Source of the DNA: a virus
Virus genome (UHGV): UHGV-0196443
Reading direction: 5' to 3' (one strand)
DNA length: 38,343 nt
Shown here one piece after another: positions 21,598 through 26,833 of the stretch. The translations under genes were made by a program, and so were the position numbers. Each line of letters starts with the position of its first letter. The first letter of the stretch is position 1. Under the pieces are notes generated by a model that did no database searches, was not told the origin of the DNA, and saw only the letters and a list, made by a program, of their open reading frames with translations.

Positions 21598-23310
21598 TTA
21601 ATAATTATAAACCTGTATTTTCGGTGTTGGTTTTGCCCGTTTCTGCGGCAGCACGTTTTCCACAGTCATCGCCGCTACAAATGCCATAAATGGGTCTGTT
21701 TTTCTGCTTTTTCCTTCTATTTTTCCATATACATAATTTCCCATATCGGCATCATCCTCTTTTCCTGGTTTTCTTCCATGCCTGATTAGTTTTGCATTAT
21801 TGGTGGCCCACCTTAATTCTGGAGCATCTCCCCACCGTAACCATTTATTTACAAAGCAGCTATCAATCAGAGGTGCCACTTTCATAATGTCTGATGGCCG
21901 GATCAGCTTCAGATTCTTATTTACTTTCATATCAAAACCTATTTCCTGCAGATATTTCCCGATCAATGCGAAACGAAAATCATCCAAGGCCAAAGCTTTG
22001 ATATTGTAGGTGCGTTTTGCTTCCTGTATATAATTTGTAAGCAATGACGGATGTATTTCCACGTCATCTACAAGCGTCAATCTTCCGGAATCCGCCCACT
22101 CTTTCCATGGAGCCTTTATCCTCGGAATGTCTTTCGAATTTAGGCACATCCATGAATGGCTGATGTCAAACCGTTCATCTCCATCTCGGAAATGAAGATC
22201 TACGGAAGCCCAATCTGTTAATTTTGTATAATCAATTCCACAAACACAGCTCCATCTTTCCAGATCCGGCAGTAAGATATTGGTCGCTTTGATATTATCC
22301 CACTCCGTCACACTCATTTCTTCTGCATTTTCTGGAATATTCATTCGCTTTGTCATGAATGCCGGAAGTCTTCTCGGATTTTTCTTCCATTCCCGGTATT
22401 CTTTTCTGATCTCTTCCATAAGACTTGGCAGGTATGGTAACGATGGATTTGCCATCGGCCAGTTTTCTTCCTGATCCACATCTTCCTTTTTATTCAGTTT
22501 ACAGATAAATGGTAACAACCCATTATCCGGTTCGCCACCCCGTAATATCTGTTCGGATGTTTCCAGTAGATCATCCAGCGGTCCTTCCCGCACGTCACCA
22601 TTTGTCGTGTAATAAGAACGCCTTGGATGTTTCTTCTTACCAAGTCCTGTTGTAAAGACGTTTATATTCTTATAGTCTTCATATTGATGGATCTCATTAA
22701 AAATACATATTCCGGAACGAAGACCGTCTTTTCCTTTCGGACTGTTTGTTCTTCCCTTCATAATAGACTTTGTTTTTAAGCATAAAACCTGTTCCTTCGT
22801 CCATCGGAAGAATTTCTTTAATTTCTTTATCACAGATGGGCGCTCAAATGCATTGATCACATCATGAACCGGCCGCATTGCCTGGTCCTCATTATTGGCA
22901 CAGATATCTACATCGTACTCTCTGATTCCATTATGCGGGGACATTAAACACACTGATTCGAGCGCAATTGTACCATCTTTTCCCGCTCCTCTCCCCAACA
23001 TACAGAATAAATCCGGCCATCTTGGAAGCCCGGATTCTCTCCAATATGTGCAATCGTGAAGTCCGATCACAAACTTCTGCCAGGGAAATATTTCTACAAA
23101 CGGGAAGTATTTTGACATCCCGATATATTTCTCCAACTGATCACAATCTATATAAATATCTTCATGCTCAAAACACCATTTTACATGCGCAACAAGCAGC
23201 TCCTGCTCTTCGCATACTGCATAGATTTTTTTCTCAACTATATCAATCCATTCCTGAATATATGGATGTATGTTACAGCTCATCTTCATCATCTCCCGAA
23301 TCATCGCCAA
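21598..23310 (-). CDS. Terminase large subunit
   Basis: 570 aa. N-terminal ATPase with Walker A-like GRGAGKDG. C-terminal nuclease-like region with acidic residues. Overlaps TerS. Confidence 0.9.
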   Translation of the reverse strand: MAMIREMMKMSCNIHPYIQEWIDIVEKKIYAVCEEQELLVAHVKWCFEHEDIYIDCDQLEKYIGMSKYFPFVEIFPWQKFVIGLHDCTYWRESGLPRWPDLFCMLGRGAGKDGTIALESVCLMSPHNGIREYDVDICANNEDQAMRPVHDVINAFERPSVIKKLKKFFRWTKEQVLCLKTKSIMKGRTNSPKGKDGLRSGICIFNEIHQYEDYKNINVFTTGLGKKKHPRRSYYTTNGDVREGPLDDLLETSEQILRGGEPDNGLLPFICKLNKKEDVDQEENWPMANPSLPYLPSLMEEIRKEYREWKKNPRRLPAFMTKRMNIPENAEEMSVTEWDNIKATNILLPDLERWSCVCGIDYTKLTDWASVDLHFRDGDERFDISHSWMCLNSKDIPRIKAPWKEWADSGRLTLVDDVEIHPSLLTNYIQEAKRTYNIKALALDDFRFALIGKYLQEIGFDMKVNKNLKLIRPSDIMKVAPLIDSCFVNKWLRWGDAPELRWATNNAKLIRHGRKPGKEDDADMGNYVYGKIEGKSRKTDPFMAFVAAMTVENVLPQKRAKPTPKIQVYNY

Positions 23311-23662
23311 CCGGCTTAATTCCTAGGCTGTCCAGTATTTTAAGCATTTGAGCATTGACCTTAATCCTCTGATCTATCGAGTCATTTTTCTTTTGCCCTT
23401 TTTGACCTCCTCCATTATTATATTCAACGATAGCGCCTCTCTTTTTAATGTCTGCGATCAGTTCGTTCTCCAGGTCCCAGAAGTCCATATATTTATCGAC
23501 CAAGTCGATGTAATATTTCCCTGTGGTTCCATTCCGGGCCAGCTGATCAAGAAGGTCCTCTTTAATTTCCACTCGCAATAATTCTTTTCTTGTTTTTCTC
23601 GCCCTTATACCACCCCCTCCGTCACGCGCGCACGAGAAATTTCTTTTGTCGGGAGCACCCAC
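23273..23662 (-). CDS. Terminase small subunit (P27/Terminase_4-like)
   Basis: 129 aa. The C-terminal NAQMLKILDSLGIKP pattern is typical of P27-family TerS. The track start is GTG, and the true start is uncertain. Confidence 0.6.
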   Translation of the reverse strand: MGAPDKRNFSCARDGGGGIRARKTRKELLRVEIKEDLLDQLARNGTTGKYYIDLVDKYMDFWDLENELIADIKKRGAIVEYNNGGGQKGQKKNDSIDQRIKVNAQMLKILDSLGIKPVGDDSGDDEDEL

Positions 23663-24069: not shown

Positions 24070-24082
24070 ATTCTCACCTCAA

Positions 24083-24154
24083 TTGCAGGAGAAGGAATCG
24101 AACCTTCGACCTTCAGCTAAGGAGACTGACGAGCTTCCACTGCTCTATCCTGCT
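24083..24154 (-). tRNA. tRNA-Arg(CCU)-like gene (72 nt cloverleaf with A1.A72 mismatch, no encoded CCA)
   Basis: Minus-sense folds by hand as AGCAGGA-UA-GAGC-AGUGGAA-GCUC-G-UCAGU-CUCCUUA-GCUGA-AGGUC-GAAGG-UUCGAUU-CCUUC-UCCUGCA-A. D, anticodon and T arms are canonical, with U33 and anticodon CCU. Position 37 is U and the 1-72 pair is mismatched. Confidence 0.45.
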
Positions 24155-24255
24155 ATATTTGTGCGATGTCGCACAGTGTAGGCTTTTGCCCAGAGCCTTT
24201 TATCGTCTTTGCTCAGGACGCAGAAAAGCATCCGGCTTTCGCCAGATGCTCTCTG

Positions 24256-24462
24256 CTATTTTCCATTATTCACTTCTTCTACAAATTGCTTCATCAGCTT
24301 TGTAAGCTGTGTTCCCATCGCAACACCAGATTCTTTGCAGGCTTCCTTGAACTCTTCTGCTACTTTCTTGTTAATCTTATATGTTTTTGGAACTAACCCT
24401 GCTTTCTCATCCCACTTATCTTGTGGTCTCTGTTTCTTTTCTTCATTACCGAGCATGCTCAT
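24256..24462 (-). CDS. Ribbon-helix-helix-like small DNA-binding protein
   Basis: 68 aa. KTYKINKKVAEEFKEACKESGVAMGTQLTKLMKQFVEE fits a beta-strand plus two helices (Arc/MetJ/CopG-like). Followed by a terminator-like hairpin (AGCAUC...GAUGCU UUUCUG). Confidence 0.45.
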   Translation of the reverse strand: MSMLGNEEKKQRPQDKWDEKAGLVPKTYKINKKVAEEFKEACKESGVAMGTQLTKLMKQFVEEVNNGK

Positions 24463-24543
24463 CCCTCACTTTCTTTATGAGGCAATAAACCAGCTTTGCT
24501 ATTCCTATAGCAATGAAGAATATTCCTAACTTCCACAACATCC

Positions 24544-24572
24544 TTTACACAAATGAGCTTTCATGTTATATT
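24544..24572 (+). promoter_or_regulatory. Plus-strand promoter with extended -10 (TTTACA-17-TGtTATATT) facing the small peptide gene
   Basis: tttaca (24544-24549), 17-nt spacer, tgt-tatatt (24564-24572). Convergent with the minus-strand peptide ORF. Confidence 0.4.
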
Positions 24573-24574
24573 TA

Positions 24575-24715
24575 TTTTGAAGAAGGGCTTTCGCCCCTCT
24601 TAGCTAATTAAATAGCTTGTCGAGAATCATTAAAAGGATTCCAACGAATAAGTCCAGAATCGCACTGACCGCCAATGTCTTTATATCGATTTTGGACTTT
24701 TTCTTTTGTTTCTTT
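24575..24715 (+). ncRNA. Candidate antisense RNA covering the 38-aa peptide ORF (type-I antitoxin-like)
   Basis: Runs from the promoter above to a plus-strand intrinsic terminator. GTCCAGAATCG (24649-24659) / CGATTTTGGAC (24683-24693) forms an 11-bp stem with one G.U, followed by TTTTTCTTTTGTTTCTTTTTG. The terminator lies inside the peptide ORF on the opposite strand. Confidence 0.35.
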
Positions 24716-24722
24716 TTGCTCA
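24606..24722 (-). CDS. 38-aa Lys-rich single-TM peptide (MSKKKQKKKSKIDIKTLAVSAILDLFVGILLMILDKLFN), type-I toxin-like or holin-like
   Basis: Not in the track (<60 aa). Strong SD GGAGGTGA 8 nt upstream of the ATG. Consensus promoter and palindromic operator upstream. Fully covered by the convergent antisense unit. Confidence 0.45.
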
Positions 24723-24748
24723 TTTGTATCTCACCTCCTTACAACTAT

Positions 24749-24777
24749 ATAATACCACATACGTATACGTATGTCAA
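24749..24777 (-). promoter_or_regulatory. Minus-strand promoter TTGACA-17-TATTAT with an 18-bp perfect palindrome in the spacer
   Basis: -35 at plus 24772-24777, -10 at plus 24749-24754. The spacer contains ACATACGTATACGTATGT (24756-24773), a perfect palindrome and candidate operator. Confidence 0.45.
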
Positions 24778-24799
24778 CACTTTTCTCAGAGGTTTTTAA

Positions 24800-24872
24800 T
24801 CCGGACAACGGGAATCGAACCCGTGACACACAGCTTATAAGGCTGCCGCTCTGACCGATTGAGTTATGTATC
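24800..24872 (-). pseudogene. Decayed tRNA remnant (intact T-arm and anticodon arm, acceptor stem unpaired)
   Basis: Minus-sense ...GCAGC-CUUAUAA-GCUGU-GUGUC-ACGGG-UUCGAUU-CCCGU-UGUCCGG-A. The 5' half (GGAUACAUAACUCAAUCGGUCAGAGC) looks like a mutated D-arm, and the 5' acceptor strand does not pair with the 3' strand. Confidence 0.3.
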
Positions 24873-24888
24873 CATATTTTTGTATTAG

Positions 24889-24912
24889 AAAAGACGCCCT
24901 AATGGACGTCTT
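24889..24912 (-). terminator. Rho-independent terminator downstream of the ATPase/TOPRIM cassette
   Basis: AAGACG-CCCTAATGGA-CGTCTT hairpin. The minus sense is followed by UUUUCUAAUAC. Confidence 0.45.
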
Positions 24913-25134
24913 ACATTTGTCTCATCTTCACATCAACTGCCTCTTTTCTGGCATTATGATGCTGGTTCTGATTCTCCGGCTTTACCTTTTGAGTAATGCT
25001 GTTGAATTTTTCATTGCTTTTCTTTCTGTTTGACTTCTCTTGATCCTTCCTATCCACTTTCCTCACCTCAGATATAGTATGTGAAGAATGGAATGTTTTA
25101 TGTATTGAAAAAGCTCCATAAAAGATACTTTCCT

Positions 25135-25665
25135 TTATCTTATCTTTATTTTGTATGATTCATTATCAATATTCTTATATTCATTCTGAGACTTAGAGCT
25201 CCAAAATTTAGAAAAATTGAAGTCGCATGCTTCCAACCTTCCCCTTAAATTATTTATTCGCAAAACATCTCTTTTAAAGTCTCTATTTGATTTGCTTCTA
25301 GTTAATTGTTGTATTTCTTTTATAGAACAACTACGAACCAATTCATCTTCTAAGTTCAGAACTTGCGTAACACACACTACTTCTTTTACTATACTCTGTT
25401 TCTTAAGAAAATCAATATTCTCTTTAAGTATATCCACTTTTCCAGTATCAGTATCAAAAACCAAAATAACCGTTGTTCTATATTTTAACATTCTAAGATG
25501 ACTTTTGCTTAATTTATTTTGAATAACATTAAACTTTTGCACTTTCCCTGGCACTATAGAGCGAAAGTCTGACTTTAATGTACTTATCACCTTCTTGTCA
25601 TCTTCTCCTTCAACAAAATAATGATAGTATTCTCCCTCTTTCATTTTCTTCCTCTTTTGTTTCAC
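25135..25665 (-). CDS. Small TOPRIM-like protein (RloB/DUF4276/AbiLii-class partner of an ABC ATPase)
   Basis: 176 aa in the track. Likely start is the internal MKEGEYYHYFVEGEDD (25644) with SD AAGAGGAAG. YHYFVEGEDD and VILVFDTDTG resemble TOPRIM Glu and DxD motifs. Lies 25 nt downstream of the ATPase stop and is very AT-rich. Confidence 0.5.
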   Translation of the reverse strand: MKQKRKKMKEGEYYHYFVEGEDDKKVISTLKSDFRSIVPGKVQKFNVIQNKLSKSHLRMLKYRTTVILVFDTDTGKVDILKENIDFLKKQSIVKEVVCVTQVLNLEDELVRSCSIKEIQQLTRSKSNRDFKRDVLRINNLRGRLEACDFNFSKFWSSKSQNEYKNIDNESYKIKIR

Positions 25666-25669
25666 ATAG

Positions 25670-26833
25670 TTATATTTGCGCTATTTCATATATCAATTCC
25701 AATTCTGGTGCAGTTGAAAACAGATCATTATCAACTGCACTTCTCAAAGAATCGGTATTCCTTTTCAAGTATTCTGAAGCATCTATACATTTAATAGGTT
25801 CCTCGGAATTATATGTATCTTTTTTTAAAAATGTATACGTATGTTTTGGTAATGGTAAATCCAATATATCTGTATTATGTGTAGTAAAAAACAATTGTTC
25901 ATCGTCTTTCAAACTATCTATCATAACACTTAAAAAAGCTTTTTCTATATCACTATGTGTATATGAAAATTTCTCATCACAATAATAAAATCCACATTCC
26001 CCAGCCAACATAGAGGATAACATGTCCGCAATATCTATACCCGCCTTGGTTCCACTAGACAAAATGCTTTCTTTTATAACTTCTCCATCCTGAATAATCA
26101 AATCTTGTGAATCCGTGCGAATAACATACGTATTTTTTACTTTATTTATTTTTTCGACGCTTTTAATTGCTGGATCTAATGCTCTCAGTGTATGATCTAA
26201 TACAAGTGGATATTTAGAATTTTCCGAACAATTTACCACTCCCCCTATTAAATCTGATGGATAACAAAACATCCATCCCAGATGCTCTATTTTCTCTAAT
26301 TCTTTTACGAAATCATCATCCAAATTTTGTTCCATCATTTCAATTTTTTTCACGCAAGACTCATAACTATCATTTTTATTGATATTTACATGCCTTGTAG
26401 ACACTTTCAACTGATGCTTACTTTCCTCATCATCCTCTTGAGGCAATATCCTAGCATCTAACCTATATAGTCTATTGCTCCTAACAACAAAATCCATTGA
26501 AAAAGACGCTTCTCTGTTTTTATCACATATTTTTTCTACAAGTTTAGTTGATTCTTTTCTCTCTATGAAATTAAAAATTCCCATGAGCATCTTTCCAACT
26601 GAAGTTTTTCCTGTAGCATTAGCCCCCATCAAAACATTCACTTTTTTATAGCGAAAATTTTGTCTATCTTTCAGAAATTCACCATCAATAGAAGAGTCAA
26701 CCAATTTCTTTGGATACGACATATTCATGTGAAATTTTTTAAATGCAAAGAAATTGTCAATTTCTAAATTCATTATGATCATAACTTTATCCTTTCGTGA
26801 ATATTTTTTCGGATTCTGCGAAGTAATCTTCAT
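25670..26833 (-). CDS. ABC-type (AAA_15/AAA_21, OLD/AriA/AbiLi-like) ATPase
   Basis: 387 aa. N-terminal MNLEIDNFFAFKKF, Walker A GANATGKTS, signature-like LSSGTK, Walker B FYYCDE, H-loop FFTTHNTDIL. Alternative start MIIMNLEID at 26782 with SD AAAGGA. Confidence 0.8.
   Translation of the reverse strand: MKITSQNPKKYSRKDKVMIIMNLEIDNFFAFKKFHMNMSYPKKLVDSSIDGEFLKDRQNFRYKKVNVLMGANATGKTSVGKMLMGIFNFIERKESTKLVEKICDKNREASFSMDFVVRSNRLYRLDARILPQEDDEESKHQLKVSTRHVNINKNDSYESCVKKIEMMEQNLDDDFVKELEKIEHLGWMFCYPSDLIGGVVNCSENSKYPLVLDHTLRALDPAIKSVEKINKVKNTYVIRTDSQDLIIQDGEVIKESILSSGTKAGIDIADMLSSMLAGECGFYYCDEKFSYTHSDIEKAFLSVMIDSLKDDEQLFFTTHNTDILDLPLPKHTYTFLKKDTYNSEEPIKCIDASEYLKRNTDSLRSAVDNDLFSTAPELELIYEIAQI

Follow-up and report, generated by a model that had tools for sequence, protein, structure and literature searches.

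The window analysed here is the whole 38,343-nucleotide virus genome UHGV-0196443, a siphovirus-type phage or prophage that holds nearly all of its genes on the minus strand, and the subject of this report is a compact regulatory module within it, which is most likely part of a temperate siphovirus of Mediterraneibacter (Ruminococcus) gnavus. The module is a single operon of 555 bp (24777-24222, minus strand) with three genes, here named ORF1, ORF2 and ORF3 (ORF, open reading frame), of which ORF3 stands together with the operon terminator at the 3' end. A preliminary description, made from the letters of the DNA, had proposed at this place a type I toxin-antitoxin (TA)-like module, that is, a tiny Lys-rich membrane peptide under a strong promoter with an internal palindrome, opposed by an antisense transcription unit. 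All of the elements listed there were found to be present and several of their sizes and labels had to be corrected, so that the proposal as a whole is confirmed in part; overlooked were a fold-back of the mRNA over the ORF1 start codon, the second peptide gene ORF2 and the operon terminator at 24249-24222. The features of the module are as follows.

24749-24777, minus strand: promoter P1, with TTGACA (24777-24772), a 17-bp spacer and a TG-extended TATTAT (24754-24749).
24757-24774, either strand: perfect 18-bp palindrome ACATACGTATACGTATGT inside the P1 spacer, predicted operator.
24731-24738, minus strand: Shine-Dalgarno (SD) sequence GGAGGTGA of ORF1, read from the sequence, 7 nt from the ATG.
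24604-24723, minus strand: ORF1, 39 amino acids (aa), MSKKKQKKKSKIDIKTLAVSAILDLFVGILLMILDKLFN, candidate antisense-controlled toxin (from the ORF list, dN/dS and family).
24718-24729, minus strand: 5' strand of the fold-back, AUACAAAUGAGC, holding the ORF1 start codon (from the minimum-free-energy (MFE) fold and inverted repeat I3).
24547-24558, minus strand: 3' strand of the fold-back, GCUCAUUUGUGU, 5 nt before the ORF2 ATG and within the spacer of the antisense promoter.
24580-24601, minus strand: stem-loop after ORF1, AAGAGGGGC-GAAA-GCCCUUCUU, whose loop is of GNRA type on the sense strand; a U tract is lacking.
24544-24572, plus strand: antisense promoter, TTTACA (24544-24549), 17 bp, TGt-TATATT (24564-24572), predicted start 24579/24580.
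About 24580-24708, plus strand: predicted cis-antisense RNA of about 128 nt, inferred from promoter and terminator.
24650-24717, plus strand: predicted antisense intrinsic terminator, 13-bp stem 24650-24662/24687-24699, U-rich tract 24700-24717.
24446-24541, minus strand: ORF2, 31 aa, MLWKLGIFFIAIGIAKLVYCLIKKVRDEHAR, with an N-terminal transmembrane (TM) segment and a basic C-terminus, without SD sequence.
24256-24462, minus strand: ORF3, ribbon-helix-helix (RHH) regulator, 66 aa from the ATG at 24456, predicted autorepressor.
24222-24249, minus strand: operon terminator GCAUCUGGC-GAAA-GCCGGAUGC followed by UUUUCU, read from the sequence and kept in Ruminococcus phage phiRgPS_6.

The promoter P1 had been described as near-consensus, in good agreement with our consensus scan, in which it scored 11 of 12 and showed the TG extension in addition. 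By a pattern search of IMG/VR and GTDB with the two promoter hexamers plus the SD sequence, P1 was found in 97 other loci (71 from IMG/VR and 26 from GTDB), and the comparative set employed below consists of 90 loci, 49 of them unique, with a common gene order: P1 with an inverted repeat (IR), ORF1, hairpin, antisense promoter, ORF2 and regulator. The hosts include Lachnospiraceae, Blautia, Faecalimonas, Mediterraneibacter, Roseburia, Oscillospiraceae and Ligilactobacillus ruminis. The type I TA-like architecture originally proposed thus recurs in about 90 related loci, though not as a stand-alone two-gene TA system.

The first gene encodes a peptide rich in Lys at the N-terminus, with a hydrophobic helix in its C-terminal part, which is 39 aa long and not 38 as first counted, and its SD sequence (24738-24731) is indeed present, at a spacing of 7 nt instead of 8. 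A family search with an alignment headed by a 43-aa member yielded at least 414 clusters at 90% identity, none with a Pfam domain or an informative name, and the conserved core of the family is KTWLVGA(I/L)TDLxIGIILLILDKLL. The exact ORF1 peptide of the window was recovered from at least 1000 contigs, among them M. gnavus genomes, and carries the label 'hypothetical' in every case. In other lineages of the comparative set ORF1 codes for unrelated peptides of 22-48 aa, nearly all of which consist of one hydrophobic helix and one charged end. The median pairwise dN/dS was 0.17 for ORF1 (57 of 58 pairs below 1) and 0.26 for ORF2 (47 of 48 pairs below 1); judged by this substitution pattern, both are real coding genes under purifying selection. 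For ORF2, Pfam, PHROGs, NCBIfam and PADLOC gave no family. Some variation was noted in the Lys region of ORF1: L045 is without three of its codons and L040 has extra ones, while ORF1 of L033 (IMG/VR) is shifted in frame by an additional A in its poly-A/Lys run, due to a sequencing error or to homopolymer slippage, and gives a 60-aa product.

The predicted P1 transcript starts near 24742. The sense RNA from +1 to the ORF2 start folds with an MFE of -63.7 kcal/mol (z = -6.8), and this fold is closed by the 12-bp helix AUACAAAUGAGC/GCUCAUUUGUGU (24729-24718/24558-24547), which buries the ORF1 start codon; the same arms were given independently by a repeat finder. A fold-back duplex of -13 to -23 kcal/mol is formed in 35 of 42 unique loci, with few or none of 200 shuffles matching it. 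Within the Lys-rich class, three pairs of the duplex show compensatory changes and G-U pairs are tolerated for GUG starts, and other classes carry different fold-back sequences at the same two places (CUUGAGGGA/UCCCUCAAG, AUUGAGGGA/UCCCUCAAU and AUAGAUGGCAAAGA/UCUUUGCUAUCUAU). On the Clostridium botulinum plasmid p1BKT015925, it is the SD sequence itself to which the downstream strand AUCUCACCUC is paired. A fold-back that blocks the start codon is typical of type I toxin mRNAs, without strictly defining them, and the predicted fold has it here. The predicted antisense RNA (about 24580-24707) would fit exactly in the loop closed by the fold-back helix.

The SD sequence of ORF2 is absent from all 36 unique loci with a fold-back and strong in 4 of the 6 loci without one. 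This absence points to a possible translational coupling of ORF2 with ORF1. A split ribosome-binding site (RBS), in which the fold-back would place the ORF1 SD sequence beside the ORF2 AUG, was considered and rejected, because the summed single-stranded spacing, counted by hand on the sequences of the family loci, ranges from 9 to 15 nt across lineages and because the C. botulinum fold-back pairs with the SD sequence itself.

On the opposite strand, the extended -10 promoter TTTACA-17-TGtTATATT lies at 24544-24572 as previously described. When the best antisense-strand site in the ORF1-ORF2 spacer was collected from 41 unique intergenic sequences, the 17-bp spacer was found in 38, the TG extension in nearly all and a -10 hexamer of the form TAnnnT in every one, and the score of 19 of the 41 was higher than that of all 200 shuffles. 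The end of the -10 hexamer is 31-50 nt from the ORF1 stop codon throughout the family, and therefore antisense transcription would begin at the foot of the post-ORF1 stem-loop. This promoter recurs in lineages with unrelated ORF1s and unrelated regulators.

The RNA predicted from this promoter ends at an intrinsic terminator inside ORF1, of which the hairpin and the U tract stand as first described, with a stem of 13 bp including one G-U pair in place of 11 bp, a 24-nt loop and then an 18-nt U-rich tract, the complement of the N-terminal Lys codons of ORF1. The transcription unit itself is retained, with a predicted length of about 128 nt and not 140 nt. It would cover ORF1 from codon 6 to codon 39, together with its stop codon and the 3' hairpin, leaving the SD sequence and the start codon outside, so that ORF1 cannot be said to be fully covered, as had been claimed. 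One open frame is present on the plus strand (TTG 24617-24799, 60 aa); as it lacks an SD sequence and a conserved start and overruns the predicted terminator, a coding role of this frame was rejected.

Directly before the U tract, almost all of the Lys-rich lineages can form an antisense hairpin of -12 to -25 kcal/mol, and RNAalifold on 20 aligned antisense sequences recovered both the 5' hairpin and the terminator. Pairing in the terminator is kept in 94.7% of the alignment cells against at most 56% with slid partners; compensatory double changes were found at 16 of 25 pairs against 1-4 with slid partners and 9.1 +/- 1.5 in shuffled alignments (0 of 500 as high), and the covariation score was 0.359 against 0.185 in shuffles (again 0 of 500). 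Since the two hairpin arms encode different parts of the peptide, protein constraints cannot explain this compensation. The terminator helices contain 23 G-U and 3 A-C cells when read on the antisense strand, an excess indicating that they work better as antisense RNA, while the post-stop stem-loop contains 9 A-C and 3 G-U cells on that strand and has its GNRA loop on the sense strand, indicating that it works better in the mRNA. This stem-loop, which also forms the 5' hairpin of the predicted antisense RNA, shows compensatory changes across the family. By a symmetric search, the best hairpin was more stable on the antisense strand in 28 of 39 ORF1 types.

It could be argued that the plus-strand promoter and terminator are by-products of AT-rich sequence and Lys codons, with no functional antisense RNA, and that the locus is a plain autoregulated moron operon: any run of AAA/AAG Lys codons must give a U tract on the opposite strand, and promoter-like hexamers are common in AT-rich DNA, 16 having been found in 3.5 kb against 13 expected. 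The recurrence of promoter position, 17-bp spacer and TG across unrelated ORF1s and regulators, with 19 of 41 sequences exceeding 200 shuffles, together with the compensation between hairpin arms encoding different segments and the wobble pairs favouring the antisense strand, makes this explanation very improbable indeed. We infer that the antisense RNA is made and pairs with the ORF1 mRNA.

The perfect 18-bp palindrome reported in the promoter spacer is present at 24774-24757, and no match to it was found in 100 shuffles of the window. In nearly every family locus an IR lies in the promoter spacer, its sequence varying by lineage and following the type of regulator, not that of the cargo: regulators with KTYK(I/V)N pair with the IR ATACGTA/TACGTAT, those with K(G/S)(F/Y)K(I/L)(K/R) with CATATGGT..ACCATATG, the remaining variants with CGGT, TCGT or AAGG cores, and a lineage with a helix-turn-helix (HTH) regulator with CCACGTA..TACGTGG. 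At the sixth position of the recognition segment of the regulator, N corresponds to ACGTA, and K or R to TGGT-type cores. One pair of regulator and IR is combined with up to five different ORF1 types. The palindrome ACATACGTATACGTATGT is therefore predicted, from this co-variation, to be the operator of the operon's own RHH regulator, which fits better than a role as terminator of an antisense RNA; the latter was rejected, as its stem is AU-rich and effectively 7 bp long and the nearest U run is 6 nt off.

The RHH-like ORF first noted at 24256-24462 is present, its 5' end overlaps the end of ORF2, and its likely start is the second ATG (24456), giving the 66-aa form annotated in databases. An RHH fold is supported by an AlphaFold2 model (mean pLDDT 70; helix, coil, helix, helix), for which the top 50 Foldseek matches in the PDB were nearly all RHH proteins (ParG, CopG, Arc, PutA, MazE, AmrZ), with weak E-values as expected for a 45-residue domain, while Pfam, PHROGs, NCBIfam and PADLOC gave no family for ORF3 beyond sub-threshold RHH hints. 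A profile including the regulators of two sister lineages matched the C-terminal Aca13 domain of AcrIIA32 (PDB 8YE6, 8ye6_B) with E = 1e-4. Aca13 has been demonstrated experimentally to repress acr (anti-CRISPR) promoters by binding to an 18-bp IR between -35 and -10 (PMC12282945), and by analogy we infer that ORF3 binds the palindrome and represses P1. As its similarity to Aca13 is marginal, ORF3 is here called Aca-like by position and architecture, and not a proven Aca13 homologue.

Several observations on operators and regulators are added here. A partial copy of the operator was detected at 25827-25844 (plus strand) within the AbiLi-like gene described below, where the minus strand reads ACATACGTATAC and agrees with the palindrome over 12 bases in a row. 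A promoter-like site that lies upstream of a 176-aa gene (TATACA-18-TATAAT; 25837-25808, minus strand) overlaps with this copy. With up to 3 mismatches allowed, no match arose in shuffled sequences; the copy may serve the RHH protein as a secondary site or may have arisen by chance within a coding region. Six loci (L005, L034, L073, L082, L095 and L096) carry a 59-aa HTH (XRE-like) regulator in place of RHH; their ORF1 is a 45-aa peptide (MRDIIREM...) in which the codons for ELNKLFDQLIKL form a 15-bp hairpin, and both fold-back and antisense promoter are retained. In L013 and L059 (IMG/VR), about 530-790 nt downstream of P1, tandem regulator genes of the KTYK(I/V)N type and the KGFKIKRE type are found together with a remnant of a second ORF2, which looks like a recombination joint of two cassettes.

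The same layout was recognized around Aca13 itself. Phage records with an Aca13 homologue number 39 for Streptococcus and 15 for Listeria, and 29 plasmid records have one as well; clear homologues occur in the sister loci L011 and L003, Streptococcus agalactiae phage Javan7, Listeria phage B025, C. botulinum and Clostridium tetani. Four of these Aca13 loci (Javan7, B025, C. botulinum p1BKT015925 and a C. tetani plasmid) share an IR promoter, a small peptide, a stem-loop, an antisense extended -10, a second membrane peptide and Aca13, and in all four the ORF1 peptide has the classical type I polarity, with a hydrophobic N-terminus and a Lys-rich C-terminus. The IR of Javan7, TATAGTACATGTACTATA, contains the core GTACATGTAC at the same position as in the promoters of Streptococcus uberis 700P1, which are taken as Aca13 promoters validated in PMC12282945 since the Aca13 domain of 700P1 is 100% identical to that of AcrIIA32 over the matched 36 residues. 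In Streptococcus thermophilus phage P5641, aca13 goes with a different, larger cargo. The cassette stands beside paratox and lysin genes in Javan7 and beside int/attP in B025. In the deposited record of B025 (L100, DQ003639.1, about 22860-23460), gp29, gp30 and gp31 are annotated opposite to the Aca13 homologue and the two peptide ORFs, and the annotation at this locus is probably on the wrong strand.

Among the closer relatives, Ruminococcus phage phiRgPS_6 shows the same arrangement with a promoter and 5' untranslated region almost identical to those of the window, while its palindrome is a different one, again perfect over 18 bp (CATATGGTTAACCATATG), and its peptide differs but is of the same type. 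Only the RHH gene is annotated there, and the paper on phiRgPS_6 is silent on the locus. No description of the module came up in literature searches, and blastn of the module against PLSDB plasmids found nothing.

From these results we hold with considerable confidence that the module is an autorepressed operon, of which the first cistron is under antisense and fold-back control. The following mechanism is proposed. A near-consensus sigma-A promoter would drive ORF1 (a 39-aa tail-anchored membrane peptide), ORF2 (a 31-aa membrane peptide) and ORF3, until ORF3 dimers bind to the 18-bp palindrome in the spacer and turn the operon off, as do the Aca repressors in anti-CRISPR operons. Two further locks would act on ORF1: the 12-bp long-distance helix between the start-codon region and a sequence about 160 nt downstream would make the full-length mRNA poorly translatable, and a constitutive extended -10 promoter between ORF1 and ORF2 would supply the antisense RNA of about 128 nt, which would end at the hairpin and U tract opposite the Lys codons and pair with the ORF1 coding region. 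The outcome would probably be cleavage of the duplex, separating ORF1 from the ORF2-ORF3 part, which would be spared.

As to the nature of ORF1, we lean, with modest confidence, to a type I TA-like unit nested in an Aca-type autoregulatory circuit, in which ORF1 would be toxic or membrane-active and harmful to the cell, toxicity and antitoxin activity being what defines a TA system. The resemblance to known type I systems lies in the layout. With AapA1/IsoA1, Ibs/Sib and hok the module has in common a small membrane peptide with a nested cis-antisense RNA overlapping its coding region, and a 5'-3' long-distance pairing that blocks initiation on the full-length mRNA (PMC8594479); the folding of type I toxin mRNAs is also treated in PMC5416894 and PMC9841398. 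In contrast to these systems, to which neither its peptides nor its RNAs are related in sequence, the candidate toxin of the window opens an operon of three genes that includes a protein repressor, and its predicted antisense RNA stops short of the RBS.

Two prophage-borne type I systems of Firmicutes are also alike. In yonT-yoyJ/SR6 of the Bacillus subtilis prophage SPbeta, the polycistronic mRNA that carries yonT also encodes another small toxin, and yonT is the target of an antisense RNA of about 100 nt (PMC5848175). SR6 extends over the 3' end of yonT and into the 5' end of yoyJ, whereas the predicted antisense RNA of the window covers ORF1 alone. The type I TA modules of Clostridioides difficile prophages stabilise the element that carries them (PMC7699646), and their toxins are hydrophobic at the N-terminus and rich in Lys at the C-terminus (PMC6563280), the opposite polarity to ORF1 of the window but the same as that of ORF2 and of ORF1 in Javan7 and B025. 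Unlike the window, neither the yonT-yoyJ/SR6 nor the C. difficile modules have an RHH autorepressor or operator.

The immI region of phage P22 (Arc/Mnt, Pant, sar) offers another likeness, for which no homology is claimed: an operon-encoded RHH repressor acts there on a palindromic operator in a strong promoter, and a short internal antisense RNA adds post-transcriptional control. It differs in gene order and in cargo (the antirepressor Ant), and sar is directed to the ant RBS.

A number of points weigh against the type I TA-like reading and its Aca-type frame. A strong promoter repressed by a protein is atypical of type I TA systems, and the predicted antisense RNA would miss both the SD sequence and the start codon of ORF1. 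The likeness to Fst, TxpA and SprA, proposed at the outset, holds for the layout and does not extend to the peptide, as ORF1 matched no known type I toxin family and, at a meaningful E-value, no family of Pfam, NCBIfam or PHROG. At both gathering and permissive thresholds, Rfam detected only two tRNAs and no antitoxin family in the antisense region. The antisense hairpin is without a U tract in 4 of 6 loci of the 'MRD' class, the ORF3 of the window had no hidden Markov model hit to Aca13, and the hhalign comparison of window-type ORF3 with Aca13 was marginal (P = 0.0065 to 0.024 over 32 columns). The 90 loci are interrelated, so that the counts given above are not counts of independent events. 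In the lineage L011, ORF1 is only 22 aa long and lacks a hydrophobic segment, and yet fold-back, antisense promoter and hairpin are retained, which suggests that the RNA layer may serve the control of the operon rather than that of a toxin.

This last lineage, keeping the RNA layer with a non-hydrophobic ORF1, also bears on another interpretation, in which the module is an Aca-controlled 'early burst' accessory operon, its cargo being no toxin but peptides for superinfection exclusion, anti-defence or another host-modifying role, and the fold-back and antisense RNA setting only timing or dosage, with no addiction or killing. The design of regulator, operator and promoter is that of the acr-aca13 operons, and the cassettes occupy positions of accessory genes (beside an AbiL-like pair and before the packaging genes in the window, paratox/lysin in Javan7, int/attP in B025). 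In the acr-aca13 operons of Streptococcus prophages (AcrIIA32), as here, a strong promoter carries an 18-bp IR between -35 and -10 for a small non-HTH repressor encoded in the operon (PMC12282945). The known Acr cargo is, in contrast, soluble and larger, while the peptides encoded by the cassettes studied here measure 21-57 aa and, but for a few lineages, contain TM-like helices, and the cargo of the window, two tiny membrane peptides, is unlike any Acr in PMC12282945. The window further differs by its internal antisense promoter and mRNA fold-back and by a regulator of a different RHH subtype, at whose position another lineage has an HTH protein. Moreover, a fold-back over start codon or SD sequence combined with a full-length cis-antisense RNA marks genes with a harmful product (PMC8594479, PMC5416894 and PMC9841398). 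We consider a non-toxin operon of this kind, the main alternative, to be on the unlikely side, while keeping it in serious view.

The peptides might alternatively be related to lysis, as holin- or antiholin-like products whose premature expression is blocked by the three regulatory layers. They are small, with a charged end and a TM helix, and a lysin or amidase gene adjoins the cassette in Streptococcus and C. tetani. Two ORF1 variants gave matches to the LydA holin family (PF16083) with E = 0.077 and 0.0068 and to a PHROG holin with E = 0.019, yet every one of these holin matches is weak and stays below the curated cut-offs. Most Lachnospiraceae cassettes lie upstream of HNH-TerS-TerL, far from the lysis genes, and an autorepressed promoter of the sigma-A consensus type is in keeping with early or lysogenic and not with late expression, so that we regard a lysis function as quite improbable.

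A wider generalization, tentative and in our view unlikely to hold in full, would be a widespread, so far unrecognised class of phage and phage-plasmid modules under the control of Aca-like repressors that can replace one another (RHH, Aca13 or HTH), the cargo being two membrane peptides in place of anti-CRISPRs and the mRNA itself containing an RNA switch. The fold-back and the antisense RNA would gate the access of ribosomes to ORF1 and, by coupling, to the SD-less ORF2, with the regulator translated independently. The module would then act as a switch in three tiers, for killing, exclusion or anti-defence, thrown only when the DNA enters or the element is lost.

Returning to the type I TA-like unit in an Aca-type circuit, the mobile elements of Gram-positive bacteria would gain with it a new family of membrane peptides under antisense control, a very common one, of a design that recurs in gut and pathogenic Firmicutes (S. 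agalactiae and Listeria prophages, C. botulinum and C. tetani plasmids), the combination of nested antisense RNA and 5'-3' fold-back having so far been described in Gram-negative bacteria alone (PMC8594479). Aca13-type repressors with spacer-embedded operators would then control cargo other than anti-CRISPRs, a point of importance where anti-CRISPRs are sought through 'guilt by association'. Should ORF1 prove toxic, prophages could be stabilised by the module, and it could also provide counter-selection markers and tightly off switches for gut Firmicutes that are hard to engineer.

On the minus strand of the window, the order of genes around the module is AbiL-like pair, 51-aa ORF, tRNA-Ile(TAT), module, tRNA-Arg(CCT), HNH endonuclease, TerS and TerL, with the following coordinates for the neighbours.

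26833-25135, minus strand: AbiL-like gene pair, upstream neighbour.
24801-24874, minus strand: tRNA-Ile(TAT), complete, Rfam 50.9 bits.
24082-24155, minus strand: tRNA-Arg(CCT), complete, Rfam 55.9 bits.
24069-23731, minus strand: HNH endonuclease, downstream of tRNA-Arg(CCT) and before TerS/TerL.

The 'tRNA remnant' that had been described on one side of the module is accordingly an intact gene, both tRNAs being complete. An HNH gene (32-100% identity) directly follows in 58 of the 90 loci, indicating that the cassette usually lies just before the packaging genes. The two genes at 25135-26833 (minus strand) together look like a defence system of the AbiL kind carried by the prophage. The 387-aa protein has a PADLOC match to AbiLi (E = 2.5e-28) and weaker matches to the AriA and PtuA ATPases, and the 176-aa protein encoded downstream of it belongs to PHROG 10204, of unknown function according to PHROG. 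None of the 89 other family loci has this pair at this site. Just upstream of tRNA-Ile, a highly charged 51-aa ORF (MRKVDRKDQEKSNRKK..., 24911-25066, minus strand) has an SD sequence and a terminator (about 24912-24889) of its own and matches no family. The tRNA-Ile adjoins the cassette also in phiRgPS_6 and in many IMG/VR loci.

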